Shown: positions 3,001-58,473 of the stretch, one piece after another | How positions within the stretch are numbered: the first letter of the stretch is position 1 | How the letters are laid out: each line of letters begins with the position of its first letter | Source of the DNA: Jimgerdemannia flammicorona | Taxonomy: Eukaryota | Reading direction: 5' to 3' | Assembly: GCA_003990765.1 (NCBI GenBank) | Contig: RBNJ01000009.1 | Coordinates: forward strand, 1-64,000 | DNA length: 64,000 nucleotides | The notes under the pieces: model-generated | What the model was told of the DNA's origin: nothing | Seen by the model: only the letters and a program-made list of their open reading frames with translations | Databases searched by the model: none | Program-made: the position numbers and the translations under genes

Positions 3001-3635
3001 CTCAACAGACTCCAGTGATCAGATCATGGACACCACTCAACCTCTAGTGACCTCCAAACATCCACCCCCCAGCAGTCTGCCATCAGCATCCAGTCAATCC
3101 TTATATACAGCCCATTTGCCCAGTGCATGTATACTCTCTGATCTCTCCAGAAACCCCTTCCAGTATCCCCCAGAGCACTCTGCCTCTCTACTTCCTCCCA
3201 TTTCTCCAACCCCTCACTCCTGTCTGCAGTCTCTTGCCCTCTGTCAGTTCTATCCACCAATGCCTCCCAGACCATATTAAAGTTCCCTCTAAGAATATCT
3301 ACTCCAGTCTCTACAAGATTCCAACTCTCCAGGAGTCCCTTCACTCAATTCACTCTCTCACCATATATAGCAGGGCAGTAACAAGACCTCACCATAACTA
3401 GCTCCCAGCCAGGTTGAATCCACTTTCCCCAGACCAGCCTGTCTCCCCAGCTCCTTGTATCCTATATCTCCCCTCTGCCTCTCTGGACCAGGATCCCAAT
3501 CTTACCCTTCCAAACTACCACACCTCCCTATTCTGTCATCTATTTCAGTCTGTCTAAGTCATATTTACATCTATGCCTAACTGAACCCCACAGCCCATTT
3601 ACATTCAAAGAGAAAATATTAGTTGTACTATTCAT
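60..3635 (-). pseudogene. LINE ORF2 (APE endonuclease + reverse transcriptase + degenerate C-terminal Cys motif)
   Basis: Motifs listed for copy A, plus GNFN (GDFN-like) and SDH endonuclease motifs near 3280 and 3020. The 3' end is approximate. Confidence 0.88.
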
Positions 3636-3666
3636 AGAAGATAATATTCTAAGTTATATATATCCT

Positions 3667-5674
3667 CTACAACTCCACATTTATCTCCTCCTATGCCAAG
3701 TCCAAGCCATATTCCATAGCCACCTCCTTCTCTTCAACCATCCTCATCTCCAATTCAACCAGAAGTTCCATTAGTTCCCTATCCTCCTTTTTCTTAAACT
3801 CCTCATGATACTCCAGGCAGGCCTCCTGCCAGAGCTGCAATCCATGATGCTCTATCTAACAGAAGACATCTCACTCACCAGCAGCAACTGCCAGCTTGGC
3901 CTTCCTCTCCTTATCAACCTCATACCCTTTCTTCTCTAGAAAAACTGCAAGTACCTCTGCCTTCAGTACCTCTATCACTCCATCACTATGCAGGATCTAT
4001 GCCCAATACTCATTACTTATTACCCTCAGGTCCACTTCTCCGAACTCTTCAGCTGCAAAGTTATTCATCATTCAGTATATCTATAGTAGGTTTCCTACCT
4101 CCTTTCTCCCTGGAGTTGCTGGTCTTCCTCTATCTAGTATTGAGGTATCTGCCTCTGTACTCACAGTCTCATTCCACTCCTTCTCTGGGATATTCACTAG
4201 TTCATTCTCACTAGCTACCACCACCCATCCCCCCTTTGCTACCTCTGGAACTCCAAAGTACACTCATTGGACTCCATGCATTGGCACATCCTCTCACCTT
4301 GCTCCTCACAGTCAGTCCCCATCTGATGAGAGGAGGAGTATCCTCTCAGACTTCAAATGTACCATCCTCATACAAGTCCTTGCTCAGTACCTTCCTGGTC
4401 TCCTCTTGACCCACCTCTACATTCTCTCTCCTACTGCTGGTCCAAACACTCACTTTGGCTCCTCCAGAATCCTCACTATCATCTGCAGTCCTCTTTGCCA
4501 CTCTCTCTAGATTCACCAGCAACTTTCTCTATCTCTTGCATCCTTAGGATCTCTCCCACAGCCCCTTATCAATGCAGACATACTTTTTCTCAATAATCTC
4601 CAAGTACATCAACTCTATATATACCTTCCAAGTCTTCATCCTCCACTCCACTATACCACTCAGCTCCTTCAGTGCCTCTAACAGGTCCTCTTCCTCCTCC
4701 TTACTCCTCTTCACCCTTGTTACCTTATACATAAAGGCTCCCAATACTATTATAGAAGGTCAATCCTGAGCCTTCCCAGTAGCCTCTCTCTCTGCCAACT
4801 AAATCCAGATGTCAATATCTCCTGTCCTGAAGGAGGTCCCCTTCCAGACTCTGAACCCTACATCAACCACCTCTTCATACTTGGCCATAACCTTCTCAAC
4901 TCTTCTCATCTCTACTGCAGTTACTGTAGAAACCCCTTTCACCAGGAGTTGCACCACCCTGGGATCCCACCTCAAGTAATGCAATATCAGAACACACACC
5001 TTCTCAACTGTCAACCCAGCCTTCAGTGTGTCCTCCAATAGCCCAGTCTTCTCAAAGCCCACCTCTACTCCTTCTAGGCCCCTCAGAAACTTGATAGACA
5101 CTGTACCATCCATCTGCTTTGCAATCAGCCCCAGAACTATTTTTGTCATCACTGCTAAGCCCTGAAAGCACAAGGTCACCACAAACTCTGAGATTGACTT
5201 CTTGAGTAATGGGGCTACTGCCAGGCCTATTATATTATCAGCCAGATTACTAGGCCTCATGTCCTTCCTACAGCTTGGTCTACTATCAGCAGTTCTATCT
5301 AGATTTTTTTCCAGATTGTCCATCATACTCCTATCAGCAGTCACCCCCTCAGCTGCTATACTGCCAACCCCACTACTCTGGCCCCCCAGAGAGACTCTCC
5401 TCTATAGCTACTGCCCTGCATTCTTTACCATCTCCTTGCCCCTCTACAGCCAACCCTCTAGTTCAGTTGCCATCTGTCTCCCCTTCACTGTATCTATGAA
5501 GCTCATCCTCTCAATCCCCTGTCCTCCAACACTGCTCCCTCTCCTTCCATGTCCTCCTGCCAGCAAGCCTCTCATACTTCCCCCCAAATCAGAGCCCCTC
5601 CCCACATGTTGCCAGCCAAACACACTTGGACCCCCCTGCCCAGTACACACCTTGGAATGCTCATCACTCACCAT
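3667..5674 (-). pseudogene. LINE ORF1 (~670 codons, RRM-like middle, acidic helical C-terminus)
   Basis: ORF fragments 5444-5674, 4799-5344, 4544-4744 and 4081-4263 are colinear and homologous to fragments in copies B and C. Confidence 0.75.
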
Positions 5675-11206: not shown

Positions 11207-12118
11207 CAGTATCATCACGTCCAGCATCACATTCTGTTGGGGACTGCCAGCACACTCTATTTATGGGCAATAACAGGTTTGTCGGTTCGGCGCCACTTCC
11301 ACTGCATACCCGAACTGCGCACAACATTCCAATCTGATAGGCACAGCCCATAGCCCGGAATGCACAGTCCTTGCATATAGTAAGGTTCACACTCGACAGA
11401 TGCTTGGTTGGTCAGTAGTAAGGTGGATGACCCGGGCATGCCGCAGCAAAAGACTCAGGCAAGAGTCACGGAAGATTTCCAGGTTAAGAGGTTATTTAGA
11501 TTTTGCACGCAATTGAAATTTTCAACTGAGAACTGCGGCTACAGATATAACAACAAAAATTTATGGTCTCGTTCCTGCTGGGTATGCCCTACTGGGCACG
11601 ACATTAACATCATTTTCGCCCGTGCCACCCACACGTCGGTAGGTAGGTAACGGGTTGGAACAGGGCATTGTGAAAGCTGCTGCTGTATGGTAAACAGAAT
11701 AACGAGGTTCAGCGAGCTGGGAGTGTCTGTTGAAAACGTGAGTTCGCGGGATGCTGGGAAATTTTTAAGGCAGCAGAGAGTCAGTGTGCTGAATCAAGAG
11801 CCACCAGTTCCGGGTAATGGAGCCAATATTGCATAGAGGAGCGGTGCGCCGGTTCCACATTTTGGGAATAACTCCGATCGCCCCGAACTGCGCCACAACG
11901 TGTTCCTTGAGTGTAATCTAAAAATTTGTCATCCTACCCCTTTCCATGTTAGGATAACCATGGAAAAAAATAAAATAAAATTGTAATGACTTCACACATT
12001 TCAAGGTGTGGCGCACTTATGCGGTGTGACGGAAGAACAGCAATGCTCGTATACTACAAAAGGCTGATGGACCTACTCCCACTTTTTGCACAAGAATAAC
12101 ATACCTAACAAATTCCTC

Positions 12119-14356
12119 ATGGACCTGAACGCAACCTTCGATTCTTCTTTCCGTAGAAGAAGCAACCCTTGCGAATCCTGCCGCCAAAATAGACGGAAAT
12201 GCGTTCCCAACCCGCACGACTACGATGGGCCATGCTACCGTTGCGAGCGGATGAATCAACGGTGCGTCTACGGGCCGTCCAAGAAAAAGGAGAAGCCCAA
12301 AGAGCTCCAAAAAGATGAGGACGCCTTCAAAGAGAGGGCGAAGATGATAGGGGACGTAGCGGAGCTGCAACGGCAACTGGCTTCGTTCCAGAAGGATGTG
12401 GTGGCGTTGAGGTCAGTGCCCATCTTTCCGGCGTTGGAGGAAATGGTGGGACTTGGTACTGGATTTGGTGGTGTCGAAATAGGTAATGATGTTATATTAT
12501 TATCTTACAATTTAAATATATTACATCAATAGTAAACCCACCACCTTGTTGAAAACACAGATACCCCTGATTCCCCGTGGAGCTCAGATTCCACCATCTC
12601 CGAACCCACTAACGATGTCGAACTCTCGTTATCCTCCATAGAAGCAAGCGTTTCTACTTCCGCAGCGACCTTCAGCGACGACGCAAGTAGCGACACGCCG
12701 GTCTCTCGCCCCATCAAACGTCGTATACCCAACTTGAATCACCAGCCAGTCCTGGAAATGTTCCGACAACCCAACTGGAAGATAACAATACGATCAGGAG
12801 GTATCCGCATCCACACGGACATCCGCACCTTCCAGGACCTCATGGACTTCGCGCTGCACAACACTGACCGCATGCACTCGGACGACCCAACAAACCCGCT
12901 CTCGTCCGCCTACCTCCTGCGCCACCATCGCACCGGGAACCGGCCTTCCCTGCATGTGACGAAGATGGACTTCGTCGTGAGCGACACGTGCTTCATCACC
13001 ATCAAGGACGCAATCAGGAAAAAGGTGACCAAGGTGACGGTGTACACCCCCATTTTGCCATCGGGGGTGGATCATGCAATAGTCCAGCAGCTCTTTGGCG
13101 GCTACTTCGAATGTATGAACACCCTACTCCCGCTCTTCTACCGCCCGACATTCTGCAAGTTCTTCTACGACCCGCAGGATCTTATCTCCTCTGCCGTCAC
13201 CAACGCAATCTGCGCTATCATGTCATCGCGACATTGCGAGCACGTGAGTGAGATATTCATGGGCTTGCAGATCAACGCGGAAGAGCAGAGGAAGGTATCG
13301 GACCATTTCGCTGCCAAGGCGAGGGATCTTTTGAGCGAGGTATTCGATGAACCTCGGTTCGGCACTATGGTCGCGATGGGGCTCCTAATGCAGTACATGC
13401 TAGCCTCTCTGAATCCGTCAAGGGTGTGGATGTACACGACCGCGGCGTTGAGGATGGCCGAGGAGCTCATGCCCCTGTACCTGCTGGAGCCCGGTACGGA
13501 TGACCTGGACCTGCTGGCCGAACGCGAGATGTTCAAGCGCCTGTTTTACTTCTTGAACGTCATAGGTGCCAAGATCCAGTCCATGCAGGACCACGGCAAT
13601 TGGTACATAATTGAATCCACGTGGAACCACATCCGAGTGCTGGGTCAACCCAAGCCGCTCCCGGGAGAGGAGGACCTTGTAGCGCGGGCCGTTTCCTGCT
13701 TCGCCTTCGTAATCGAGCTGGGCAACTGTCAGGTCACCAACGATTTGACGGACATGCAGTATATCTACGCTAAGCTCACCGACAAGCTCTCAATCGAGTC
13801 GTGCTCGCGTATCGAGACCTCGTTCATCCGCTGGTACAATAATCTCCCCGCCACATACCGCGTCACCCCAAATATATTCCAGTATCCGTCGCCGGAGGAG
13901 CTCGCCCGCGCAGACCCCTATACCCTCAACCTGGCTCTCTTCTTCTACAACTGCTGGCTCAGGCTGCACGCCTACTTCCTCCCCTCCCTCGAGCCCGGCG
14001 ATTCAAACGCCCTCGCCGCCGAATCTGAGGCCACCAAGCTATCGTTCCGTTCGCTAATCATCTGCATCAAGTCCGCCAATATTGTCACTGCCATTTCTGA
14101 GCACATGTTCGCGCGATGGTGCTGCATGGTAGACCTGGAGAGCCTACTACATGCGAGCGACGTGCATCTCAGGATGTCCAGATCGAAGAACATCAGGCTC
14201 GCGGCCATGGGGAGGGAAAATTTGAGGCGGAGCATGGAGATTGTCAAGGGGATCATTTGCAATGTACCCGGAAACAACGCACACGTGTCAAGGTTTTATA
14301 CGTGTTTGGCCGGGTCGTTGGCGACATCGTTGGCCAAGTTCGGGATTCATTTTTGA
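12119..14356 (+). CDS. Zn(II)2Cys6 fungal transcription factor with Fungal_trans-like middle region; predicted intron 12483-12560, ~719 aa
   Basis: CESCRQNRRKCVPNPHDYDGPCYRCERMNQRC binuclear cluster followed by a coiled coil. YFECMNTLLPLFYRPTF is typical of the middle homology region. GTAATG...ACACAG (78 nt, AT-rich) joins the two ORFs in frame; a donor at 12456 is also frame-compatible. Confidence 0.9.
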
Positions 14357-15923: not shown

Positions 15924-16630
15924 AGAAGTGGGACTAGAATGGGGCTTGAGCTTGGAGTGAGGAGGTATGGAGATGGCTACCACCTAAGTACTGGGTGGTT
16001 TGGTGGCATATACTGTAGAGAAATATTATACTCAACTTTCATTCAGGCCACCTTATAGAGGGGAGAAGTTTTGACTGTAAGGAGTGTTGTAATATAGGCC
16101 AGGAAGGGGGATTTGTACAGATGCCAGAATATTGGCTGAGAAAGTACAAGATACTTAGAGACTTCTGGCTAGTAGTTGGAAATTAACTAAGTATTATGAG
16201 AAGGGGAGATGGTAAGAGGGGTCAGTGGGAGGACCTAAGAGATAGATTGGTGGGGAGGATTAGAAATAAGTGGCTCACTATTGGTTGGGTGTTAGCTGTA
16301 TGGGTGGGGCTGGCAGGACACTGGCTGTTTGTTTTTGAGGAAGAGAGGTAGTTGGGTTTGGGGGAGTAGCTGTTAAGATGAGAAGGATTGATAGAGGACA
16401 TCTTGACAGGTTGGTAGCTAGGATGGGGTCTGCAGAGAGATCATCAGTATCATTTGGTAGAAAATATTTGTAGGCAGAGTGGGAGGAGGGTTGGAGTAGT
16501 GGGTGATAAGGTAGTGTTCAAGCATGAGGAGGTAGAGGGGGGGAGGGGGGCCCTAGGGAGATTGGGTAGTGGGAGGGGATACTATATTTATATTTGATAG
16601 ACTGATAATAAATAGCAAAGTCCAAGAGAC

Positions 16631-18346: not shown

Positions 18347-18740
18347 TGTGATGTATAGTATGAAATAGAAATAAGAATCAGGGGAATAGATATTTGATTG
18401 TGGTACCTGAATCCAATTTCCTGATTTATTATAGTGTAGAAATTACCTTTACAGCAGATACTACATCTAAAATATTATCAGTGAAACTCTTGTTACTTTC
18501 ACGAATTTCAGATAGGATTTCACATGAGATTCTACCTGAGAATTTCACATGAAAAGACTTGATACTTAGCTGCATATTTAGTAGCAGAATTAGTGCACAA
18601 ATCTGTATGAATAACCCAGTATTTTAGAGTGAATAAACCTCAGTCAGATCAAACCAGTTCAATTCAAAAGTCTTCTTTACATACCCTTCCTCCCCATTTC
18701 AAAATCCTACCAACTCACCAAGTTCCGCACCCACTATGTT

Positions 18741-18771: not shown

Positions 18772-19250
18772 TGATTTGATTGATTGTGGTGGCTTTTACG
18801 TTCAAGGATTCTTGGTGCACAATATTTATTTACCCAACCTAATGAACCATGTTTCAAGCTAAGAATGATATTTTTATCATATCCTTTCATATGCCAAATA
18901 TATGGACTGGAAATTGGTTTCCGTAACATCTTATTATTTTGGCGTTAGAGTCAATGTTTGACGCATCCAAACAAAAACGCATCCAGATATGTCTTTTGAC
19001 GAATATTCATGTTAAAAAAAATGTCTTTTCTTTCCCAAGAGGGTGGGAATTAGGCGATTTCGTATTTGTAAAGTGCCAAGGTCAATCCTCAAAGATGGGA
19101 CAGGCCAGTCCCAACTACAGTTGAAAAACAGTTATCTGGCGTAAGCCATGAATGATCTTTGGGGATCAAAGTTTTTCCAGACATGTGACCTGAATATATT
19201 TCCCCTTTCTTAATTGGCTCTTGGTGCTATCTCACTTCCAATCGGTCCAA

Positions 19251-19961
19251 ATGACACAACTTGCTCAAAAGTCTGCCTACCGTGGCCTTGACAGCTTCCC
19301 GAACGAGATCCTTGTCAAGGTCCTTGTCCTCGTCGGCCCCCACGACATCCTGCAGGCCGCACTGGCGTATCGTCGCATTGCTGAGTTCACACGGACCGAC
19401 TGGCTGTGGCAGCTGAAGCTCCTCGCGGACTTTCCCAGCGCCAACCCCGAACCCAGCGACACGTCCTACCTGAACGCCTATATCCGCCTCTCCTCTAAAA
19501 TATTCCTCGCGAGCTACCGGGCCAACGTCGCCTGGCTCAACAATCAACACTGGTCACGTATTCCCGATCTCTCGTCGCCGTATGGCCAGATTATCTGCCT
19601 GAGGTCGGTCCGGTGGATGTCGGCTAATGGCGAGTTCCGCAACGTGCGTGTCGGCCATTATGAGGTTGTTTGGCGGCTCAAGGTTGTGGGAAGAGGACAC
19701 CATACGTTGTGCAGGACATGTTTAAGTTACGAAGTCATTGACGGGAATGTGTTTTTGGAGGAGCAACCCGGCGTCGGATTCTGGAACACGTTGAAGGAAG
19801 GCGAATGGACCGAGTACAGGTTCTCACAGCCTTTAATTATTACCGATTCCGATGCTGGGAAGACCGTCAAGTGCCTCATACGGGACATTGGTCATTACAT
19901 CAAGAACGGACTGTGTTTGGACTGGGTACAGATGGAGCGCGTCGGGTCGAAGTGTCAATGA
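19251..19961 (+). CDS. F-box protein with C-terminal PP2/Nictaba-like (phloem protein 2) domain, 236 aa
   Basis: F-box LDSFPNEILVKVL...DWLW. C-terminal pattern VAWLNNQHW / LRSVRWM / YEVVWRLKV / GEWTEY / KNGLCLDWV resembles the PP2 consensus. Uninterrupted ORF with normal CpG content. Confidence 0.8.
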   Translation: MTQLAQKSAYRGLDSFPNEILVKVLVLVGPHDILQAALAYRRIAEFTRTDWLWQLKLLADFPSANPEPSDTSYLNAYIRLSSKIFLASYRANVAWLNNQHWSRIPDLSSPYGQIICLRSVRWMSANGEFRNVRVGHYEVVWRLKVVGRGHHTLCRTCLSYEVIDGNVFLEEQPGVGFWNTLKEGEWTEYRFSQPLIITDSDAGKTVKCLIRDIGHYIKNGLCLDWVQMERVGSKCQ

Positions 19962-23935: not shown

Positions 23936-24278
23936 TGTGACGTATGGTATGAAATAGAAACAGGAAATAGACATTTGATCGTAGTACCTGAATCCAATTT
24001 CCAATTTAGTATAGTCTTTTACTGCGGACACTGCTATCAGTGAAACTCTTGTTACTTTCACGAATTTCAGATAGGATTTCACATGAGATTCTACCTGAGA
24101 ATTTCACATGAAAAGACTTAATACTTAGCCACATATTTAGTAGCAGAATTAGCGCACAAATCTGTATAAATAACTCAGTATTTTAGAGTGAATAAACCTC
24201 AGTCAGAACGAGTCAGATCAAACCAGTCCAATTCCAAAATCCATCCAACTTACTAAATTCCGCGTCCACTACGTTACA
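23936..24278 (+). mobile_element. Solo LTR (family B)
   Basis: TGTGA...TTACA termini with a 4-bp TSD CTAT. Confidence 0.88.
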
Positions 24279-24924: not shown

Positions 24925-25770
24925 TATAGTTATTTTGTATTTACTACTTAGTTATATTATATTATATTATATTATATTACATTCTTATATATTATCTCAT
25001 TGAGTAGAAGTATTAAAATGTCTAAAGTCTATCACAATTATATTAAGTTATATTATTTTACACTTATCTGTTTGAAAGTAATAGCTATATATTTATGATC
25101 TTTTTTAGATTATTTCTGAGAATGTATTTAATTATACTAAATAATAATATGATATATCAATCTAGTATTATCTAAAAACTATAGTAGAAGATATTAAGTT
25201 CTGTAATTACCAAATATAGTTTTATTGGAAATAAGATAATATGACTATTAAATAATACTATATAATGTAATGTTGTGGATGCTTACTCTTGAAAGTACAT
25301 CGGATTTCTGTATCTTGAATACTTGATCTTCTCTGACTCCTCAGAGTCCTTGGGATGCAGGGGTGGGTGAGTTCGAAGTGTATCTGCCTGCAGGCTTACT
25401 AGTTCCTTTGTTTTCTCTTTACTTTGAACTATTTCGATCTGAGGTTTATTCACTTGAAGATACTGGGTTATTTATACAAGTTTGCTAGCTATAAGGTGGC
25501 TAAGTAGTGAGTCATTCTGCAAGTATCGGATCTTTCAACATCTGCTAGGATTTTGCTGATTGCAAACATTCTAACATCTCCTAAATCTTTGCAAACGTTA
25601 AAGTTTCGGCACTTTGCAGAATATTACTGCTATTTATGTGGCTAAACTATATTGGGAATCGGATTCAGGTACCGTGATCAAATGTCTAATTCTCCTGTTT
25701 CATGTTACTAATTCGGATCAACTGTCACATCTTCCTCCTGAATAGGTGATTCATCCTTGGAGCATCCTAT

Positions 25771-26232
25771 TCACTTGAACTCCCAGGCTTCTACGATTTG
25801 TATCTCCTTGTACTGTGCAATTTGTGCTATTATGTTCTTCCAGTGTTGCCTCTTGACATATCCAAACTCTCCTGGGGTTACTTCTCGGAAGTGGGCTAAG
25901 GCTGCTTCGTCATCCTTGAATAACTTATGTACTCTTTTTGCAATCGTAATTTGAATGTAAGAGAGCTGACATTCCTTGATCCAGTCTTCTTTTCCCATCT
26001 TTGGCCTTGAATTCAGTAGCTGTCCCAACTTGAAGTATTCCTGAAACTCAGTTCAGTTCTGGTAGGCCTTGAAATGTGAGATTCGTGATAAGTGCATCTG
26101 CACTATACTCTGGATGCTGTCGAAGGATTCCTCTATCATTGGTGGCTCAGTGGAACACCACTGTCTTTCTATAGCTCGCTAGGCTGTGCTAGTGATCTTG
26201 AGGGCAGCAGCATTACTTCATTGACTGGTCAT
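25771..26232 (-). pseudogene. Extra ORF3 of the Gypsy element, 153 aa, unknown function
   Basis: 462 nt here and 462 nt in copy 2 (50675-51136), with conserved translation. Internal stops are explained by C>T/G>A changes. Confidence 0.7.
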
Positions 26233-27415
26233 GATACTTCTTGATTCGGTTTCAGTGAATGGTAGTAGAGATGATTGTACCTGAGAGTTTTCGTAGCCAA
26301 AAGGTGGTCCCTTTTATATCTTGCACAAGGTAAGGTCCTTCCCACTTAGGCTCCAGCTTTCGTGACCATGAAGCTTCTACCATATTCCAATACACCAGGA
26401 CTTTGTCTCCTATCTTGATAATCTCCAGGGACTTGTGAGTCTTTTCTGCAATATTCTGTTGTAATGTCTGTGCCTTGTTTATGTAATCCTCAGCCTTCTT
26501 CCTTATTTGGTGCAATTTCCGTATCTCTGTGTCCACTCATTTCCATACAGCATCTCCATTGGACGATAGGGTTCCTTGAGAACTTTCTTCTCCAAACAGC
26601 ATTTCTCGAGGGGTGAAGTGGGTACTTTGTGATCTGATATCCCAGAGAGCAGATAATGCTATTGGCAGATAGTGATACCAGTTTTCATAGTTATCACAGA
26701 TCTTGGCAATAACATTCTTGAGGGTCTTGTTGGTCCTTTCTGCTTGTCCATTTCCTTGAGGGTGATAGGCTGTAGTCCAAATGTGCTGGATCTTGTATTT
26801 CTTGTAGAGAACCTCAAAGAACTGGTTCACGAATTCTGTTCCTCTGTCTGTAGTTACTTACATTGGGGTCTTGAACCGGCAGATGATTTCTTTGTAGAAG
26901 AAATCGGCAATTGACTGTGCATTGGCTTCCTTGAGGGGTCCTGCTTCTATCCACTTCGTAAAGAGGTCTACGATGACAATGATATATCGGTTGCTGGTCA
27001 AGGTCAGGGGTAGGGGGCCGATTACATCCATTGCTATGTGGGCAAATGGTATCGGTTCTATATGTGCTGATCCCGGGGCTTGGTTCCATTGGTCTTGTTT
27101 TTGTTTCTGGCATTTGTCACACGTTTTGACAAATTGTCTGATATCTTCCTCCATTCCTGGCCTCCATATTATTCTTCTCGCTTTATCGTATGTATTGGTT
27201 CCTCCTAGATGGCCGAGTTCATGTACTGATTTCATTGCTTGCTCCTTCTTGTATTCTGGTATGACTAGTAGTTTTCCTTTCCTCAGTGTTTCTCCATCGG
27301 TTTCAAATTGTTTCCATGTCCGGTTGATAATCATTTGTATCCATTCTTCCAGATGTTGGGGCATCTTTCGCTATCCCAGATATGTGATGATTCCGTAGTA
27401 GAGCTCCTTATTCAT
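26213..27415 (-). pseudogene. Gypsy integrase as a separate ORF (HHCC, DDE, GPY/F; no chromodomain)
   Basis: HELGH...CDKC, IAMDVIGP, TDRGTEF, GQAERTN, WEGPY. Own ATG at 27415 in a different frame from RT/RH. Confidence 0.9.
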
Positions 27416-30400
27416 AATTGATTTGTTGGTTGGGGGTGTTTCAGGGTGTCCGTGAGAGAGCATCTGCATTGGAATTTGTTCTTCCAGGGCAGTGTACAAT
27501 GGTTACATCATAGGCTTGTAACTTCATTATCCATCTGGCATAGATTCCTTTGGGTTGTCCAGTTGTCAGTAGCCAGATGAGAGCTGAGTGGTCTGTCTGA
27601 ATGGTGAAGTGTCTTCTGGCCAGATAGTAGTGGAACTTTTCCACAGCCCAGATGACTGTGAGACATTCCAACTTGTAGGATTTGTATTCTTTTTCAGCTC
27701 CTCGGGTTCCGCAACTAAGATATGCAATGACATACTCCTTTTTGTCTTTCTTTTGAGCTAGGACTGCTCCTAGTCCCTGTGCACTTGCATCAGTCTGTAG
27801 GATGAATTCTTGAGTCCAATTGGGTCGTCTGAGGATGGGTGCCTGGGTCAGTCTGACCTTGAGTTCGTCAAATGCTTTTTGTTGTCTGCCAGTCCACTGG
27901 AACTTGATGTCCTTCTTGTTGAGTTCGTAGATTGGACCTGCGATGTTGGAAAATCCTCTGATAAATCTACAATAGTAGGATGCAAGTCCCATGAAGGCTT
28001 GGGCTTCCATCACAGTGGTGGGCCTTGGGTATGCCGCTACTGCTTGTATCTTGAGGGGGTCTGTGTGTGTTCCATCTCGATTGATAATGTGGCCAAGGTA
28101 GGAGATTTCGATTTCTGCAAACTTGCATTTCTTGGGCTTGATGTACAGGCCATGCTTTCTCAGACTTTCCATTATCTGCTGTATGTACTGTAGATGTTCC
28201 TCAGGTGTCTTGCTGTAGATGATTACATCGTCCACATAAACCATCATCCATCTTCCCATGTTATGGCGGAAGATTTTGTTCATCATTTGCTGGAAGCTTG
28301 CTGGTGCATTGCACATCCCAAATGGCATTCGCAGGTAGATGTAGGTTCTATCTGGGGTTATGAAGGCTGACTTTTCACTTGCCATTTCTGTGAGTCCGAT
28401 TTGGTGGAATCCTGAGTATAAGTCCAATGTGCTGTAGTACTGTGCTTCATCTCCCAGTGTTATAAGGATGTCGCTGATGAGGGGCAGTGGTTGGCGATCC
28501 TTCTTGGTAACTGTGTTAAGCTTTCTGTAGTTGACACAGAGTCTTGGGGCAAATTCTCCAGGCTTGCTTCCTTTTTTCGGGGCTAGTACAACTGGTGAAG
28601 ACCAAGGGCTACTGGCTTCTTTGATAATACCAGCTTCTTCCATCTGCTTGATTTCTTCTCTGAGCCATTCCCGGTAGGCTGGCGGGACAGGTCTTGCTTT
28701 TTGGTAAATTGGTTCAGTGTCTCCAGTATCTACCTCATGATAGTACTGTGGTGTTTTTCCTTTGATATCCTTGAAGTCTGTGGCAAGGACATCCTTGAAT
28801 TCATGGAGTATTTCCTTGAGTTCCTCCTTGAGTGGGAATTCGTTTCCAATGGTGTAGCCATGCTTGTTTGTGGTTTCCTCCTTCTTATGCTCCAGTTCAG
28901 TGATCTTGGTACTGGCGAATACTCCTTTTCCTGTGGATCCGAATCCTTTCTTTCCTCTTTTTGTTTCCTCCAACTTCTTGACTTCTATGATCTTTGGTTG
29001 TCGGACTGGGAAGATCAACATCTGTGCCAGTCGGTCCTTCTTCTTGATTGGGAATGGAATAGTAGGATTGTGATTCCTAGCAATGAGTAGTATTTCTCCA
29101 ATATAGTCTGAATCAATGACTCCTCCTTCAATCGTAATTTCACTTCTTGCTAAACTGCTTCTTGTCTTGAGGATCCTGACATGATCCTTTGGGATGGTCA
29201 TCTCCAGGCCGGTTGCAAGTAGAGTAGTTGTCTGGGGTTCAAGTACAGTTTTCTCCACTGTGGCGATATCCATTCCAGCTGCATTTTCCGATTTGTATTC
29301 TGGCAGGACTGCATCAGGGTGAATCTTCCAGATTTTGACCTTGATTTCTTCTTCATCATCACTGTCTTCCAGGAGGGCTGGTGGTTCGTCATCTTCCTCC
29401 TCCTCCTCTTTGGCTTGCTCCTTGAGAGTCTTTTCTCTTCTTTGGTGGTAGATTTCCTTGATTTTGCTGGTGCACTGGTAGCACTCATTGACATGCTCCA
29501 TACAGTACATTCGAATCCCATGTGGACAGACTCCTTGTGGTGCATATCCTTCTGCGATCTTCTTGCACCATTCTTCTTCACTCATCCATCCGACTTTCTT
29601 CTTCTTTTTCTGTGTGGTCACCATGTAAGCTTCTACTTACTCATCTTCCTCTATCTCGGCGAGCACTCCTTTGTTGACATTGATGGGAATTCGCATCTTC
29701 TGACCTCAGTAGATAATCTGCATCTTCTGAGCATTCAGGTTGATTATTGCTCTGGCTTTGTGAAGCCACTGGTTGCCAATAAGAATGTCATAGTTGGTTG
29801 CATTGGTTACTATCACATCCACTGGAATAGTTGCTCCTCCAAACTTGATGGGAATATCTCTGATTTTTCCCAAAGGGGTGGCTCTTATACTGTCTGCTGT
29901 GACAAACACCAACTTGGTTGCTTCTTTGACCTCCCATCCCAGGTGGTCTACTGCCTTCTTGCTGAGGAGGCATCCTCCTGCTCCTGTATCTATGATGGCT
30001 TCAAAGATTCTGTCTTTGATTTGGCAGGTTGCATAGGCGGAAGTCTTGCAGTTGTCTTCACTTTCTTCTCCAGAATCTTCTTGAACATTGTTGGCTTCAG
30101 TTATCTTCCAACCCTGCTCCTTGGTTGTTTCGGCAAGTCCAAATCTCATTTCCTGTCTAAACATAGGAATTTCTGTGAGCTGGCTGAAGGTTGCATTGAC
30201 TTTTTGTTGGCTGAGATCCTTGAAGATATCATACTTGAAGGTCTTGGTTTTGCAAAGCTTCTTCTCCTTTTCTCCTTCGCTAGCTGGAGTAGTTCCTTGG
30301 ATGATATCTTGAACTGCTTGTTCAAGCTCTATATCTTGATCCATTTCTTCAGCTTGGCTTTCCATGGCCATTTCCATCTGTTTTTCCACCAGGTTTTTCT

Positions 30401-31391
30401 TGGGTCTTCCTGGTGGTCTCTTGTAGGGTTCCTTGCGAACATCCTTCTTGGTAGTCTGTGCAGGGTAGGCCTCCTATTCTTCGTCTGACTCTCCAATTTC
30501 CTTGAAGGTGATGATGTTGGCCTGTTCCTTGTTTTTAGTAGCATTTCTCAGCTGGGCCTTGCGCTTAGTTTCACTCATACATTCATATGAGTAGTGGCCT
30601 TCTTCTCCACAGCTATAGTAGGTACCTTTCTTCTTGTCTGAGGTAGTGGCAAACTTCTGAATCAGGCGGTGATCTCTTCCTCTAATTTCTTTTACTACAT
30701 CCCCTAGGTGAGCAGTCATTTCAGCGAACTGCTTGGCAAGCTCCTCCATGGGGTCGCTGTTTCTCTGCTGCTCTGTAGCTCTCATTTGGGGTGTGTTTCG
30801 ATTGATCATTGTGGTGGGGATCACACTGGTTGCCTTGGGTGCTTCGATTCTAACTCCAGTGACTCTTTCCATTGTGTGGTCTTGTGGATGTCTGGCTATC
30901 CAATACCGTTGAGCATAGGTGACCTTCTGTGGCAGATCCAGAATTACTGGTGATGAGCAAATAGCCATAGCTATCTCTGGGTGGACTCCTTTCATGAAGC
31001 TTGCTTCAGCTACTTGATCTCGGATAGCATCAGCATAATCTGCAAGGATTATCTGATATCGGATTCGGGTGTAGAATGTGTTTGGATCCTCGCTCATTTC
31101 TTGGCATATTGTATTGAGCTAATCCTTCAGGGCTTGCTTAATCTCCTCTTTATAGTAGGTATTTTGAAGCCAGGTCTTCTGTGCTGTCAGTATGGCATCA
31201 GCATCATTTCCTGCATGGGTTGCAGCTGTGAATGCTGCTCTAGCAGGACCTCATAGGCTGAAGGGCATGAGGGCTACTTGCTGTGCTGCTGTCAGGGTTC
31301 TTACAGCGGCGTACTGCTCGAAATCATTGATGAAAGTGATGATTGATTCATCTGAGGTATATCCATGGAATACTGGTGGTCTCATATCCAT
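27408..31391 (-). pseudogene. Gag-protease-dUTPase-RT-RNase H polyprotein (single frame, scattered stops)
   Basis: MDMRPPVFHG start, Zn knuckle CGEEGHYSYEC, protease IDTGA, dUTPase motifs, RT MPFGM and YVDD, RNase H TDAS and ADALSR. All fragments are in one frame. Confidence 0.92.
28929..29345 (-). CDS. Trimeric-type dUTPase domain within the Gypsy polyprotein
   Basis: Five motifs in order: AGMD, RSSLA, GVIDSDYIGEI, DRLAQ, RGKKGFGSTG. Confidence 0.95.
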
Positions 31392-31973
31392 TTTGTCTTG
31401 GTTTCTTGCCTCAGTTTGTATGGTTGTTCAGGTGGTGGTGGTTGTTCATTGTTCAGCTTAAAAGTGAGGGATTCATCTTGAATCACCAGCCAATGGGCAC
31501 CAAGTTGTAACGTAGCAGATGCTTACTCTTGAAAGTACGTTGGATTTCTGTATCTTGAATACTTGATCTTCTCTGACTCCTCAGAGTCCTTGGGATGCAG
31601 GGGTGGGTGAGTTTGAAGTGTATCTGCCTGCAGACTTACTAGTTCCTTTACTTTCTCTTTGCTTTGAAATATTTCGATCTGAGGTTTATTCACCTGAAGA
31701 TACTGGGTTATTTATACAAGTTTGCTAGCTATAAGGTAGCTAAGTAGTGAGTCATTCTGCAAGTATCGGATCTTTCAACATCTGCTAGGATTTCACTGAT
31801 TGCAAACATTCTAACATCTCCTAAATCTTTGCAAACGTTAAAGTTTCTGCACTTTGCAGAATATGACTGCTATTTATATGGCTAAACTATATTGGGAATC
31901 GGATTCAGGTACCATGATCAAATGTCTAATTCCCCTGTTTCATGTTACTAATTCAGATCAACCATCACAATAA

Positions 31974-33660: not shown

Positions 33661-34163
33661 AGTATGATAGTTGATCTAAATTAGTAATATAAATTGGAGA
33701 AATAGACATTTGATCATATTATCTAAATCTGATTTCTTAATTTATTATAGTGTAGAAATTGTCTTTACTATAGACATTACATCTAAAACATTATTAGTAA
33801 AACTGTTGTTACTTTTACAAATATTGAGATTTAACAATTATCAAGATTTAATAGATATCAAGGATTAATACTTATAAAAAGTGACTTATAGAAAACATAG
33901 TAATAACTTAGTCTTATATTTAGTAGTAGAATTATTATATAAATCTATATAAATATCCCTAGTATCTAGAGTGAATAAATCTCAGATCAAAGAGTTTAAG
34001 CCTCACCCTAGTAGTCTGATAATGAGATCAGACAGATACTACTTATAACTCTGAGAAGTCAAGAAGAGTTATAGAAATCTGCTACATTTTCCTGGTTATA
34101 TACCTGCTATGTTACTTCAAGTAAAGACAAATTTCTCACTTTCAAACTAAATAACAAATAACT

Positions 34164-34570: not shown

Positions 34571-35134
34571 CCATTTTCCACACCCTGAACTCAAACTCAT
34601 TGTCTTATTTCCTATGAGCCATTACACATTAAAAGTTTGCATAGGAGAAACAAACATATGCCAAAGTACTCAAAACTATATATTTTTGAGTTTAAATAAG
34701 ATATCTCAAGGACAAGATAGGAGGAAGTTGTGATAGTTGATATAAATTAGTAATATAAATCAGAGGAATAGACATTTGATCAGTATCTGAATCTGATTTC
34801 CTGATTTATTATAGTATAGAAATTACCTTTACTGCAGACATTATATATAATATATTATTAGTAAAACTATTATTACTTTTACAAATATCAAGATTTAACA
34901 ATTATCAAGATTTAATAGATATCAAGGATTAATACTTGTAAAAAATAATTCACAGGAAATATAGTCATAACTTAGCCTCATATTTAGTAGCAGAATTAGT
35001 ATATAAATCTACATAAATATTCTCAGTATCTAAAGTAAATAAACCTCAGGTCAAAAGAGTTTGAGCCTTACTCTAATAGTTTGATAATAAGATCAGACAG
35101 ATACTACTTATGATTCTGAGGAGTTAAGAAGAGT

Positions 35135-38100: not shown

Positions 38101-40997
38101 CTGTTGGAGTTAGGTGAATGAGGTTGAAGGAGGCTGCTAGGGTCTATTGGAGGAAAGCTGGCAAGGTGGCTGGTAGACTGAGAAGAAAGAGGATATTGTG
38201 GGCTTCTGCTAGACTGATGAGGCTGTTGGAAGATTGGACAGATCTGTTGGCCCTAGAGAGGGTGGAGGACTGGAGATTGTTATAGGTAAAAAAGGAGGTT
38301 GTTGAGTTGCAACAGGTATTGCAGGAGGAGGAGGAAGTGCAGGTGCAGAGTTTGGCAGCAAGACTATGTTGGCAGGGGCTGGAGAAAGGGAAGAGGCCCT
38401 CTAAGTTTCTCATGAGGGCCCTTTAGATGAGGAGAGTTCAGTAGAGGTGGGAGGGGGTGCTTGATTCTGAGGGACTATTGGTGCATGGTATACAAGACAT
38501 TCTCAGGTCATTGAAGAAGAGGTGGAGTGGTTTGTAGAGTAAGGAGGAGGGTGGGGCTGATGCTACCACCATTGATCTTGCCTTGGAGGATTGGTACTCA
38601 CTACAGGCAGAAGGACTAAGTGACTTGGTGTTGTTGGTGCAGGAGGAGAAGATTTACCAGATTCATGCCACAACTATACTGGGTACAGCACCAGAGGTAG
38701 ATGGTCTGCCCTGAGATTTCTGGAAGAAGATAGTGGGTGTCCCCAGTATACTGGAAGAGTTGAGGGCAATTTGTGACTTAGTACTACAGTCTGGGAGATG
38801 GGTAGGTGAGCAGGATCTGGGGCTGGTGGTACTGTTGTATAAGAACATGGGCAGGAGAGAGGACTGGAAGAACTGGAGGCTGATCATGCTACTGGACATA
38901 GACAGAAAGTTGTTTACTAAGGTGGTGGTAGTGAGGCTGCAGAAGATGGCCCAACAGGTCTTAGGGGAGGAGCAGTGGGGCTTTGTTGGGGGCTGGCTCA
39001 TTCAGGATGGCACTACTTGGGTATACAGCATTATTGAAGGGGCACAAGCCTGTGGACTGGATGGATATCTGGTTTTCTTAGATCAGGAAAAGGCATATGA
39101 CCATGTTCAGAGGATTTGGATGGCAAAGGTACTTGATCAGATTGGCATCTCTCAACAGTTCTGAGTGGTAATGATCAGCCTACTGGAAGGGAGCAGAGCT
39201 GTACTCATGTGTAATAGGCATTGAGGGATGGCTTTTCTGCTGGGTAGAAGTATTCTTCAGGGAGACCCACTGTCCCTCATTCTGTATGTACTCTCCTTGG
39301 AGCCTTTAATGGATAGAATTTGGTGAAGGATAGGAGGGATTTCAGTATTTAGCATTGAGTGGAACGTTGGTATCTTTGTGGATGATATGATAGTTGGCCT
39401 GGGTTCAATTGTTGATATAGAGGTACTCAAGGAGACTATGGAGTGATATGAGGTACACTCTGGGACTAAACTCAATTAGCACAAGTGTAAAACAATGATG
39501 CTAGGTAATGGCCTAGTGGGGAGAGATGTCATCAGAACAATTGTCCCAGCTAGGGAGGCAGTGAGGTACTTGGGCATCTATCTTCCAGTATATGGGTCAG
39601 TTTTACTAAAACTCTGATGGGAGCAGCAGGTTGTTATCTGGGGAGAGGCCCTATAGAGTTAGGGAGACTGCCACTTGTCTCTGGTGGGGCATGTTTCCAT
39701 CTTGAATGTTTACTGGCTGCCAAAGTTGTGATATTTGGCTTATCAACTGAACTTCCCAGCCTAGATGATGAAGAGACTGCTGAAACTGGCCAAGGGGTGG
39801 ATTTGGACTGAGAGGAGGAGTCAGATTAGCTGGGAAATCTTATCTTTACCAGTGACTAGAGGGGGACTTGGGCTGGTTGACTTTCTGAAGAGGTTGTATT
39901 ACTTGAGAGCATGGTGGCTGAAGAGAGCTATAGAGCTGAGGGGCAGCAGCTGAGTTCCTCTGATGAAGAAGGTCCAGGAGATGACGTTCTCACCAAGAGG
40001 CTCTACTGGAGATCTACTGGCCTTAGTTGGGCTTCAGAACATTGGATATATGCAGTTTAAGAGCTTCTGGTGGAGAGTTACAGATGGGGTACATCACATT
40101 GACATCTGTTGGCAGAGAGATAAGGGAGAGATACCTTGAGGCCCAACAATGTGGAGATGGGACCAAGTGTTACTGGGGGACATTCTTCTCAGTGACTTCA
40201 ATATTGGTGATGGGGTTGAGTATCAGAGGGGATTGGGGCAGGATCTGTGGCTCAGCAGATAATAGTTAGTGGGTATCAGAGAAGAGTAAGACTAGAATAG
40301 GGTCTGGGCCTGGAGTGATAGCTGCTACTGAAGTATTAAGTAGTATGATAGTATATATTGAGGAGGAATGTTATGCTCAACTTCCACTTGGGCCACCTTG
40401 TGGAAGAGAGAAACTTTGACTGTAAGAAGTGCTATAATGTTAGACAGGAAGGAGGTTTTGTGCAGATTGGCTAGGGGAGTATAAGGTACTTAGTGACTTC
40501 TGGATAGTAGTTGAGAAGCTACTGGGTATCATGCAGAGGAGAGATGGTATGAGAGGTCAGTGGGAGGATTTGAAGGATAGATTGATGAGAGGAGTTGAGA
40601 AGGAGTGGCTTATTTTAGGTTGGGTTCTAGCTGTATGGGTGGAGTTGGCAGGTCACTGGTTGTTTGTTTTTGAGGAAGAGAAATGTCTGGGCTTGAGAGT
40701 ATAACTGCTGCAATGAGAAGGGTTGATGGTGGACACTCTGATGGGCTGGTGGCTTGGTTGGGATCTGCAGAGTGATCAGTAGTATCAGTTGGTTGAGAGA
40801 ATCTATAGACAGAGTGGAGAGAGGGTTGGAGTAGTGGGGAATAGGGTGATTTTTAAGTATGAAGGAGTAAGGAGGAGGAGTTCCCCTATGGAGATTGTGT
40901 AGTGGGAGGAGATAATGTAATTTTATATATAGACTGATAATAAATAGCAGAGTCTTAGTAACTATAAAAAAAAACAAAAAACAAAAAACAAAAAAGA
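35135..40997 (+). mobile_element. Full-length L1/Tx1-like LINE (copy B); ORF1 ~35219-37234, ORF2 from ATG 37266
   Basis: MNSTTNIFSLN start, DQEKAYD, QGDPLS, FVDD, A-rich tail 40966-40995. 13-bp TSD AGTTAAGAAGAGT at 35122-35134 and 40998-41010. Confidence 0.95.
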
Positions 40998-44200: not shown

Positions 44201-46990
44201 ATAACCCTGTCCCAATAATCTCCAATAATCAGACTATAGATACTATATAGCCTCTAGTAACTTCCAAATACTCAAACCCCAGTAGTCCACTATCAGCACT
44301 CAGTCAATCCTAGTTCCCAGTCTATTCATCCAGTATATATAGACCCTCTTATCTCCCCAGATCACCCTATCAGTATCTATCAGGGAGCTCAGCCTTTTCA
44401 CATTCTCTCATATCTCCAGACCTCTACTCTTATATCCTGCTCTCCACCCTCTATCAGTTCTATCTATTAGCACATCCTGGACTATATTGAAGTCCTCACT
44501 AAGAACATTCACTCCAGTCTCAGCAAGAGCCCCACTCTCCCAAAGTCCCCTCACCCACTCTACCTACTCATTCTATACAGTAAGGCAGTAGCATATACTA
44601 ACTGTTACAGGTTCCCAATCAGATCAAACCCACTCTTCCCAAACTAGCTGATCACTCCAGCTTCTCATATCTTGGATCTCCCCTTTGCCACTCCTGACCA
44701 AAATCCCAACCTTATCTTTCCAAACAGCTTTACCTCTCTATTTCTTCATCCAATCCAGCCTATCCAAATCCTCTTCATATCTAATATCTTATAAAAGAAA
44801 GAGATTAGCTTCCAATCTCTTCAGCCAAGTAAAAATGTTCTGATGTCAAACTGAACCCCATAGTCCATTTATATTTAAAGAAAAAATATTAGTTATACTG
44901 TTCAAAAGAAATAATATTAAATATCCAGTATATCTTCTATAGCTCCACATTTATCTCCTCCTGTATCAAGTCTAAGTTATGCTCAACAGCTACCTCCTCC
45001 TCTTTAATCCTTTTAGCTTCTAGTTCAATCAGTAGTTTAGCAAGTTCCCTATCCTTCTTTTCTTTGAAGTCTTCATAATACTCCAAGCAGATCTCCTGCT
45101 AGAGCTGTAATCCATATCTCTCTACCCACCAGAGGGCAGCTTGCTCACTAGTAGTAACTGCCAGCTCTACCTCTCTTGTCTTATTAATCTCATATCCTTT
45201 CTCTTTCAAGAAAACTGCAAGCACCTTTACTTTCAGAGCCTCTATCACTCTATATTCATGTAAGATTTACACCTACTGATCATCACTAAGTATCCTCAGG
45301 TCCACTTCTCCCAACTCCTCAGCTGCTAAGTTATTCATCATCCAATATATTCATTAGAGATTGCCTACCTTCTTTTTATCTAGAGTTGCCAGTCTCTCCT
45401 TCTCTAGTATTAAGATATCAGCTCCTGTACTTGTGGTCTCATCCCACTCCTCCTCAGAGATATCTACTAGTTTAACCTTATTAGCCACCACTACCTGTCT
45501 CCCTTTCACTACCTCAGAAACTCTGAAGTATACTTGCTGGACCCCACACATAGGTATATCCTCTACCACCTGGCTCCTTGAGACTAGACCCCATCTGATA
45601 AGAGGAGAAGTATCCTTCCAGACATTGAATATATTATCTATATACAGATTATTGCTAGATATATCCCTGGCTACTTCTGGACCCTTCTCTACATTTCCTC
45701 TATCTTTGCTGGTCTAGACACTTGCTTTGGCTCTCCCAATATTCTCAATTCTACTAGCATTTCTCTTTACCTTTCTCTCCAGATTTACCAGTAACTCTCT
45801 CTGCCTCTTGCATCCTTGAGACCTCTCCCACAGTCCCTTATTAATATAAACCCACTTTCTATCTACTATCTCCAAATACATTAACTCTATATATACTTTC
45901 TAAGTCTTTATCCTCCTCTCTACTATACTACTCAGCTCCTTTAATACATATTTCTAACAAATCCTCCACCTTCTCCTCCTCACTCTTCTTTACCCTCATC
46001 ACCTTGTACATAAAGGCCTCTTACACAATTACTGATGGTCAATCGCAAGTCTTCTCTGTGGCCTCTCTCTCAGCTAATCAAATCCAGATATCAATATTCC
46101 CTATTCTGAATAAGATCTCTTCTCAGACCTAAAACCCAATATTGACTACCTCTCTATACTTAACTATAACTTCTTCAACTCTCTTTCTCATTTCTATAGT
46201 AGTTACTACATATGAGTACTTCTTTCACTAGCAGTTACACTACTCTGGGGTCTCATCTCAAACAATATGTCATCAGAACACATATCTCTCCAACAGTCAG
46301 CTCAGCCTTCAGCATATCCTTCAATAGCTCAACTTTCTCAAAGCCCACCTTCACTCCTTTTAAATTCTTTAGAAACTTTATAGATACTGTACCCTCTATC
46401 TACTTAGCAATTAGCCCTAAGACCATTTTTGCTATCACCACTAAGCTCCAGAAGCACAAAGTAACTACAAACTCTGAGATCAACTTCTTGAGTAATAGGG
46501 CCACCACTAAGCTCATTACACTATCTGTCAGATCTTCTATCTACCTGGGCCCCATCTTTCCAGCTCTACCATCAGCAGTCATATCTGGATTTTTTTCCAG
46601 ATTGCTAGTTACTGCTCCATCAGTAGTCATACCCCTAGTCACTACACCACTAGCCCTTTTACTTGATATTCTCAAGAGAGCCCCTCTCAGCCCTCCAGCA
46701 GTAGCCCTCTCCTTGCCACCCTGTAGCCATCCATTCAGTTTAGCTACCAGATCCCTCTACTTAACCTTCTTAGCAAAGCTCTTCCACTTCTTCTCTAACT
46801 GTGCTATACCTCCTTCTCAATTGCTACCAACTCTCCTTCCTCCTGACAAGATGTTTGGCATCCCAACTCTGCTCTCTGATCCCTCTCCACATACTGTCAG
46901 CTAAATATACTAGGGCCACTCTGCCTAGTACATTCCATAGAACTCTAATTCAAGAACATATTCTTAAGATATTTCTCTAAAAAATAGTGT
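41204..46990 (-). mobile_element. Near full-length L1/Tx1-like LINE (copy C, divergent subfamily)
   Basis: T run 41204-41247. DQEKAYD at ~43071-43091, FADN at ~42786-42798. ORF2 start region ~44904, ORF1 homology 44940-46940. The 5' boundary is approximate. Confidence 0.9.
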
Positions 46991-49481: not shown

Positions 49482-50147
49482 CTGAGTTTTTTTGTATCTT
49501 GAGTCTAAACTTTTTAGTGATCTTTTTATCAAAATAGTACTTGCTTACTCTACTATTGATAAGGAATTCAACAAGATTTTCTTCAATTTTCCCTTATAAG
49601 TAGATATATTCAGAATTGTCTTCTTATCAGATAGCAATTATTTCTAAGGAGACTTCTTCTCAATCTTATATATCTCTATTTTTATTATTAATATTCTTAA
49701 TTTCTTTATCTCATTATTCTGGAATGATTGGCTTATAATTTTTGAATTTGAAAACATATATGTATAATATATTCTTCTAAATATTTAAAATAGTATATCT
49801 TAACTTGATGAGGATATTATCTTACTGGAATATATCTATTAATAATATACTAATACTATTTCTAGTCTCAGTCTTGAGATTTTTTAATGTAAATAATATT
49901 CTATATCTTGATCTTCTCCTTAGCCTTATCAGGATACTTTTCTATTGATCTGAAAGTTTTTCCTCCTCTATTGAAGAGTGATATATAGTTTATTTGTTTC
50001 TTTAACTTCAAGGTTATTATATATTACCTCAATGATAGCTTAGGTAATTCATTTTTTACATATAATTTTAACTACTTTCTATCTAGTATTGTATAGCAGA
50101 ATCTTAATTTTATCTTTAAATTCTTAGTCTATAACTCCTCTCGCTAT

Positions 50148-56890: not shown

Positions 56891-56894
56891 CTAT

Positions 56895-58331: not shown

Positions 58332-58473
58332 TAGTACTCCTAATAAATTAAATTGAATTGAATTTAACTCAAATTTAATTTGATTTAATTGAATTAAAGA
58401 TCCAATTCAATTCAATTCAATTTGAAATTTAATTTGAACTTTATTTTTCAAAATATAATAACTTGACAAATAT
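58332..58473. mobile_element. Left part of a hAT-type MITE (same family as 18067-18293), interrupted by Gypsy copy 3
   Basis: TAGTACTCCTAATAAATT start and shared AAATATAATAACTTGA block. Confidence 0.75.

Follow-up and report, generated by a model that had tools for sequence, protein, structure and literature searches.

The 64,000-nucleotide (nt) stretch of Jimgerdemannia flammicorona DNA analysed here (GenBank assembly GCA_003990765.1, contig RBNJ01000009.1, positions 1 to 64,000; called the window below) contains three copies of a long terminal repeat (LTR) retrotransposon. It is a Ty3/gypsy (Metaviridae) element with a dUTPase, assigned on the basis of its flanking LTRs and the domain order protease (PR), reverse transcriptase (RT), RNase H (RH) and integrase (IN) with a CCHC gag. 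Comparison of its open reading frames (ORFs) with those of its relatives shows that IN, as read from sequence, is a conserved separate cistron outside the polyprotein across a deep clade. The clade would be tricistronic, with ORF1 for Gag-PR-dUTPase-RT-RH, ORF2 for IN alone and ORF3 for a small protein. IN is probably translated by termination-coupled reinitiation.

Copy 1 (25266-31969, minus strand), delimited by self-BLAST and a repeat search, is full length and decayed. Its 5′ LTR (31506-31969) and 3′ LTR (25266-25729) are each 464 nt long and 94.8% identical to one another. Copy 2 (50147-56897, minus strand) is full length and heavily decayed, with LTRs at about 50147-50634 and 56410-56897 that are 93-94% identical. 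Copy 3 (58471-64000, plus strand; 5′ LTR at about 58471-58957) breaks off inside IN, where the window ends. An initial annotation, made from the letters of the window, had described copy 1 as divergent from the other two, which agrees with identities of 84-85% between copy 1 and copies 2 and 3 and of 90% between copy 2 and copy 3.

RH and IN meet at the overlap ATGAATAA, located at 27408-27415 (minus strand) in copy 1, 52312-52319 (minus strand) in copy 2 and 63053-63060 (plus strand) in copy 3. The initial annotation had reported this three-copy junction, and the sites proved to lie at homologous positions. In each copy TAA ends the frame carrying ...NADALSR, and ATG AAT AAG opens a +1 frame encoding IN. 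The RH frame of copy 1 is translated as ...NADALSRTP*NTPNQQINYE* and its IN frame, from the ATG, as MNKELYYGIITYLG*RKMPQHLEEW.... The string ATGAATAAG occurs exactly three times in the window, at 27407-27415 (minus), 52311-52319 (minus) and 63053-63061 (plus). This count is not above chance (1.58 expected; at least 3 in 15 of 100 shuffles). The three sites are homologous positions in aligned copies of one 6.7-kb LTR element, and their significance lies in this homology and not in the motif count.

In copy 1, Pfam domains zf-CCHC, gag-asp_proteas (aspartyl protease), dUTPase, RVT_1 and RT_RNaseH were found in one frame, the ORF1 remnant (27408-31250, minus strand), which ends with the TAA at 27408-27410. 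The zf-CCHC match scored 20.5 bits in copy 1, just missing the cut-off of 20.8, and 29.1 and 27.0 bits in the related metagenome loci L003 and L005. Integrase_H2C2 and rve were found in the +1 frame that opens at the ATG 27413-27415, so that the earlier placing of IN in this frame was supported by both translation and domain search. The remnant of the IN cistron spans 26189-27415 (minus strand) and carries decay stops; its original stop is inferred to be the TAG at 26189-26191. It is followed by the remnant of ORF3 (25771-26232, minus strand; ATG 26230-26232), which encodes a conserved small protein. By tblastn, ORF1 of L005 matches copy 1 over 31250-27444 with 70% identity and its IN matches over 27415-26192 with 83% identity. 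No chromodomain (PF00385) was matched in the 562-residue read-through of the copy 1 IN frame and tail, and none of the 120 standalone INs listed in the protein search described below has one in its precomputed Pfam annotation. The element is therefore not taken to be a chromovirus.

Metagenome contigs were scanned with an IN alignment, which gave 79 loci. The junction set comprised the 24 loci with an ADxLSR-type RNase H motif no more than 60 codons upstream of the IN ATG, and in 24/24 of them the RH frame first meets a stop at a distance of −31 to +8 nt from the A of this ATG. The form of the junction varied. It was ATGA in L001, L003, L004, L016 and L023, and also in L015, whose contig is too short to reveal the RH motif and which is outside the 24. 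The form seen in the window, ATGAATAA, was found in L005, the IN of which is 83-85% identical to that of copy 1. L006 has ATGAATAG, L012 has TGATCATG, L010 and L013 have TAATG and L011 has TGATG. RH stops were located at +7 and +8 in L007 and L009, at −31 in L027 and at −26 in L071, where a 23-nt spacer precedes an out-of-frame IN. A sister clade (L034, L035, L042, L046, L049, L052, L054, L072 and L073) has TAA, a spacer of 9-21 nt and ATG GAC/GAT CC in the same frame in 9/9 members. The nucleotide after this TAA is always a purine, G in 4/9 and A in 5/9. The IN frame relative to ORF1 is +1 in the window, L005, L006, L009 and L027, −1 in L001, L003, L004, L007, L010-L013, L016, L023 and L071, and 0 in the sister clade. 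What is conserved at the junction is the AUG with its adjoining stop, while the shift site and the frame vary.

Both ORFs are uninterrupted in several relatives: L003 (ORF1 of 1566 or more codons, IN of 418), L004 (1735 and 418), L035 (940 and 401), L052 (1122 and 392) and L072 (1080 and 403). ORF1 of L003, L005 and L007 contains CCHC, PR, dUTPase, RT and RH domains. The contig ends of L004 and L023 carry repeats (99% identity over 140 nt and 100% over 123 nt, respectively), as an element with near-identical LTRs would give. A weak FRQ-like Pfam match at L003:7378-8115 was considered as a fungal flanking gene and dropped, since the terminal repeat of L004 makes it likely that this stretch is internal to the element. 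The initial annotation had held that young or related copies with RH and IN in one frame would speak against a separate IN. When the junction was compared across relatives, the closest ones were all split at the same Met, some of them with both ORFs uninterrupted, and fused forms appeared as distant outgroups.

The same split was seen among proteins. The IN frame of copy 1, with X at each stop, was searched against proteins of 217-692 amino acids (aa), and 183 matches at E≤1e-10 were obtained among 1402 candidates. The 120 listed matches score 201-690 bits and are 233-571 aa long, mostly about 400-430 aa with 40-50% identity and full coverage. A search of proteins of 693-2000 aa with this same query, for fused RT-RH-IN forms, gave 96 matches among 3243 candidates, the best with 189 bits and 33% identity. 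Every one of the 120 listed standalone INs outscores this best fused protein, and identity of the fused relatives to the window IN is 33-35% or less. Among the 120, 84 begin at the Met of the window, 7 were called 2-31 residues upstream and have Met there, and the remaining 29 are N-terminally shorter fragments. Met therefore stands at the column of the window ATG in 91/91 informative proteins, with no other residue. It is followed by N in 54 and by D in 29, and the N-terminal consensus is M-N/D-x-x-L-Y.... An alignment of 67 full-length INs shows no variation in the DDE triad and conservation of at least 90% for the HHCC residues. From the ORF1 side, a search with the RT-RH of L003 returned as its 11 most similar proteins (51.9-57.2% identity) only proteins without integrase, all terminating 1-19 residues from the projected end of ORF1. 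At 47-52% identity, split forms and extended or fused forms were mixed.

An IN tree was built from 90 rows: 34 of the 67 standalone proteins, copy 1 with 12 split loci in other frames, 8 in-frame loci and 35 fused rows. The window falls within a split/standalone clade of 45 rows (Shimodaira-Hasegawa-like approximate likelihood ratio test, SH-aLRT, 100) that contains zero fused rows, and the fused rows are outgroups. The in-frame elements form a separate clade (SH-aLRT 100). On this tree the fused label changes 3 times, against a mean of 28 for shuffled labels, and 0/500 shuffles were as low. Among 11 main-clade elements, IN has shifted frame relative to ORF1 on at least 3 occasions. Fused relatives have a homologous '..LxxYL...P' helix right after the RH tail. 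In two of the fused outgroup polyproteins, P0135 and P0139 (1625 and 1632 aa), a Met already occupies the site that corresponds to the IN start (…W-MDDEWY…), which may have been a pre-adaptation for the split. The nearest standalone IN is P0001, with 75% identity. Its nearest ESM Atlas clusters by language-model features are standalone INs of 451 aa (Mucoromycota commonest) and 407 aa (Rotifera commonest). This gives no more than a lead that elements with a split IN may be present in bdelloid rotifers as well, whose LTR elements share PR-dUTPase-RT (PMC5408684).

The ratio of nonsynonymous to synonymous substitution rates (dN/dS) between copy 1 and L005 is 0.09 for ORF1 (1260 codons), 0.11 for IN (402 codons) and 0.10 for ORF3 (150 codons). 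The value for IN indicates that IN was translated and constrained in lineages with the ATGAATAA junction. The dS of IN in this comparison is 0.79, far below the 2.18 of ORF1, and nucleotide identity between copy 1 and L005 rises stepwise near the RH/IN junction. The lower dS could reflect recombination that swaps an IN-ORF3 module, or saturation noise.

All three copies in the window are pseudogenes. Read in the register of copy 1, the gag-RH and IN frames contain 4 and 3 in-frame stops in copy 1, 27 and 8 in copy 2 and 25 and 9 in copy 3, and the IN frame stays open after the ATG for just 14, 24 and 15 codons, respectively. The four decay stops in ORF1 of copy 1 are at 30474-30476, 29706-29708, 29637-29639 and 27441-27443 (minus strand). 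The last of them, a TGA two codons past ADALSR, is shared by copies 1 and 3; it is attributed to CpG decay because copy 2 has CAA and L005 has CGA there. As neither frame is open today, the RH and IN ORFs describe an ancestral and not a present state. The initial annotation is to be qualified on two counts accordingly: its TAA some ten codons past ADALSR is present in all copies, but is preceded by this TGA in copies 1 and 3, and its integrase ORF of all copies holds as the ancestral layout, but not for the frames with their decay stops of today.

The kind of decay was examined in the differences among the copies. Copy 2 has two 1-nt deletions, and where the coding region of copy 1 is set against copies 2 and 3, each indel either comes in a multiple of three nt or is compensated by another. 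Between copies 2 and 3 there are 528 transitions and 16 transversions. The observed/expected CpG ratio is 0.31, 0.04 and 0.05 in copies 1, 2 and 3 and 1.03 in the adjacent host gene at 12068-14353, which is Zn-cluster transcription-factor-like. The loss of CpG and the excess of transitions point to methylation-driven or repeat-induced point mutation (RIP)-like decay that targets repeats. Differences at which copies 2 and 3 agree against copy 1 are concentrated at third codon positions. By codon position, ORF1 has 10/4/47 transversions and 65/49/197 transitions, and IN has 3/3/4 and 24/11/36.

ORF3 is present in L003, L005, L007, L009-L012 and copy 1, for example at L003:5960-6649, L005:5795-6253, L007:7232-7636 and L010:3063-3779, and overlaps the 3′ end of IN in a different frame. 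The ORF3 of copy 1 is 74% identical to that of L005. The ORF3 ATG lies in or just past the conserved ...KKYH codons of IN; in copy 1 it lies within them, 41 nt ahead of the inferred IN stop. A profile search of 1.84 billion cluster representatives gave 151 small proteins of 59-318 aa at E≤0.001, 68 of them at E≤1e-10. The AlphaFold model is confident and all-helical, with a mean predicted local distance difference test score (pLDDT) of 93.9 and a predicted template modelling score (pTM) of 0.83. No match to this fold was found in the PDB (Foldseek best E 0.54; VIA-align wide best Z 4.7), and Pfam gave no consistent family.

For the expression of IN we propose the following scheme. Ribosomes completing ORF1 would terminate at the junction, and a fraction of 40S subunits would remain on the message and resume initiation at the neighbouring AUG. 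This conserved AUG opens the IN ORF at the natural RH/IN domain boundary. The product would be free IN, sub-stoichiometric and made from the full-length RNA, which would then reach the cDNA or the particle in trans. With gag fused to pol in this clade, the RH/IN junction would be its only translational dosage step. Reinitiation is favoured because the stop stays adjacent to the AUG through repeated changes of frame, and because in L027, L071 and the in-frame clade the two ORFs do not overlap at all. It is preferred to read-through because the in-frame clade uses only TAA plus a purine, a context of efficient termination that resists read-through. The initial annotation had suggested either termination-reinitiation or +1 recoding; judged by the comparative pattern, the first fits and the second does not.

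The RNA around the junction was inspected for signals. The 60 nt before the IN AUG (27416-27475, minus strand, in the window) are C-rich and G-poor in 12 elements. Compared with the 500 nt upstream, C is 0.33 vs 0.25 and G is 0.16 vs 0.22 (Wilcoxon p 0.002 and 0.007, respectively, for 12 elements that are not phylogenetically independent). This tract may be an RNA feature, or a mere reflection of the Pro/Thr/His-rich RH tail. No Rfam family was found at the gathering threshold in the window or in five relatives, and no tRNA genes were found.

Several observations weigh against reinitiation. Eukaryotic ribosomes seldom reinitiate once they have translated more than 1200 codons, and normally need a cis RNA element to do so. 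Folding of the region from −100 to +20 of 12 junctions gave z-scores of −1.82 to +1.76, with no consistent stable structure and no element like a TURBS (termination upstream ribosome-binding site) or a pseudoknot, 18S rRNA complementarity being outside this test. No island of nucleotide conservation was seen at the junction between copy 1 and L005 (0.74-0.81, like the surroundings). L028 is the sole exception to the adjacency, with about 375 nt between ORF1 and the IN ATG. Within the window family the codon-position signal is weaker in IN than in ORF1. The overlap of ORF3 with IN, which ranges from 17 to more than 120 nt, indicates another route of expression for ORF3, for example a spliced RNA. 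Finally, standalone ORFs predicted by metagenome gene callers are a biased sample.

Some of these points would be expected if IN were made from an RNA of its own, whether spliced, subgenomic or internally initiated, and if the adjacency of stop and AUG merely reflected a compact genome in which long overlaps are costly. Such an origin is unlikely, though it deserves attention. In six relatives the start of ORF3 precedes the IN stop by 17-131 nt, and in L010 it is further upstream still, a placement that reinitiation hardly explains. The ORF3s of other LTR elements are reportedly expressed from spliced messages (PMC5408684). The C-rich, G-poor tract before the IN AUG and the absence of detected RNA structure in the 12 folded junctions also fit an RNA of its own. 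A separate mRNA, on the other hand, needs no stop near its AUG, and the stop was kept at −31 to +8 nt in 24/24 loci through at least three changes of frame. In the window family no AG dinucleotide precedes the ATG within 35 nt, which leaves no 3′ splice site close by, and no joint near the junction was listed for aligned soil-metagenome contigs, which are DNA only. These rows came from a DNA run labelled soil metagenome, the only run listed with the family, which contained 21% of the query words and gave 1785 contig pieces of the family; no RNA run was listed.

Frameshifting is common among retroelements, and a programmed shift, by +1 in the window lineage (at GAA_UAA_G) and by −1 in others, could yield an ORF1-IN fusion for the protease to cleave, as with ordinary Gag-Pol. 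The frames of ORF1 and IN do overlap in most main-clade members, where the IN frame extends without a stop for 6-46 codons upstream of its AUG, and in antizyme the +1 shift is stimulated when a stop codon occupies the A site (PMC5009743). We consider it improbable all the same that IN is made in this way. No shift site is shared, and the direction is +1, −1 or 0 among close relatives. In L027, L071 and the 9 in-frame members the ORFs do not overlap, so a shift cannot join them, and the Met that is invariant in 91/91 proteins is unneeded for frameshifting. It is hardly credible that the split arose as a 1-nt frameshift passed down in a defective, non-autonomous lineage that is mobilised in trans. 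All three window copies are dead and the codon-position bias within the family is weaker in IN, as such a lineage might show. The same layout is nevertheless found down to about 34% IN identity, in several members with uninterrupted ORFs, IN has a dN/dS of 0.11, and no fused relative is closer than 33-35% identity. Moreover, no indel occurs in 27282-27505 among 12 of 27 aligned metagenome rows.

Reinitiation remains the favoured account of IN synthesis. A fuller picture, a tricistronic clade with stop-restart translation like that of caulimoviruses and some mycoviruses, free IN of low abundance acting in trans and an ORF3 protein of new fold that possibly recruits IN or promotes reinitiation, is put forward only tentatively.

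Coupling of this kind is known from RNA viruses. Victoriviruses use AUGA for coupled reinitiation. As in the window clade, the stop of a long ORF in such viruses overlaps or adjoins the AUG of an out-of-frame downstream ORF, and the downstream product is a separate, scarcer protein, as IN would be; some of their hosts are fungal. They differ in having a defined TURBS or pseudoknot, whereas the window clade consists of LTR retrotransposons with integrase downstream, and no such element was detected in the folding of its 12 junctions. Overlapping stop and start codons (UAAUG, AUGA) bring about reinitiation in calicivirus VP1/VP2, influenza B M1/BM2 and SART1 (PMC10275272), and the fungal hypovirus CHV1 uses UAAUG (PMC2699510). 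SART1 (Kojima et al. 2005, via PMC10275272) is described as making a retrotransposon enzyme ORF by UAAUG coupling on a bicistronic RNA, much as is proposed for the window clade. It is, however, a non-LTR element with its junction between a gag-like ORF1 and a whole ORF2, and it needs a downstream RNA structure; in the window clade the junction separates RNase H from IN, within the stretch that usually forms Pol. The +1 frameshifting of GAG-POL in Ty3 and Ty1, like gag-pol recoding in general, sets a product ratio during translation, as the RH/IN junction would, and the Ty3/gypsy architecture is common to Ty3 and the window clade. According to PMC5009743 it acts at the gag/pol junction through a specific shift site, gives a fusion product and has no need of an AUG. 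The window clade has gag-pol in one ORF, its junction at RH/IN, an invariant AUG and a variable frame.

Caulimoviridae (for example cauliflower mosaic virus) are reverse-transcribing elements of the same order and express consecutive ORFs on one long RNA by reinitiation (PMC10275272, PMC5902531). Caulimoviruses are without integrase and rely on the virus-encoded transactivator TAV. In foamy viruses Pol is separate from Gag and is recruited in trans; it is made from a spliced mRNA, and PR-RT-IN are kept together. A dUTPase between PR and RT is shared with Tmt1 (Tuber), PosPlaTy3 (Postia) and Vesta/Juno/TelKA (bdelloids), but these fungal and rotifer elements are described with IN inside pol (PMC2864245, PMC5408684). 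Tmt1 has been assigned to the elements with a chromodomain (PMC12581995), a domain for which the window element gave no match. In the passages of the literature searched, with subscription papers, supplementary files and Repbase outside the scope, no LTR retrotransposon with a separate stop-start IN cistron was found, and the word 'integrase' is absent from the 300,000 characters covered of the frameshifting compendium PMC5009743.

Outside the three copies, the window shows a nest of further repeat families. Dispersed repeats with 73-94% identity pair 3573-5235 with 44843-46521, 16131-16430 with 40466-40765, 18476-18662 with 24035-24221 and 33720-33991 with 34784-35055. An F-box/PP2-like ORF (19194-19958, plus strand) sits between a pair of 187-nt repeats with 94% identity and a spacing of 5559 nt. 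Pfam matches to Zn_clus (E 0.0012) and Fungal_trans (E 0.0029) were both below the Pfam cut-offs, and make a fungal host no more than probable.

In the standard account of retroviruses and LTR retroelements, IN is the C-terminal part of Gag-Pol, is carried into the particle by this fusion and is released by the protease. If the reading given here is true, a large and successful clade with IN as its own cistron breaks the Gag-Pol rule. The packaging or recruitment of integrase would have to be solved in trans, and the dosage step would have moved from gag/pol to RH/IN. The clade would, moreover, provide the first stop-start coupled translation in an LTR retroelement findable in the literature searched. 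Both the Ty3/gypsy element and stop-start coupling are of kinds already known; what would be new is their combination. The more than 20 sequence-diverse junctions are a natural set for the study of eukaryotic reinitiation after a very long ORF, and a pipeline that annotates on the assumption of a fused Pol may take elements of this kind to be frameshifted or defective.

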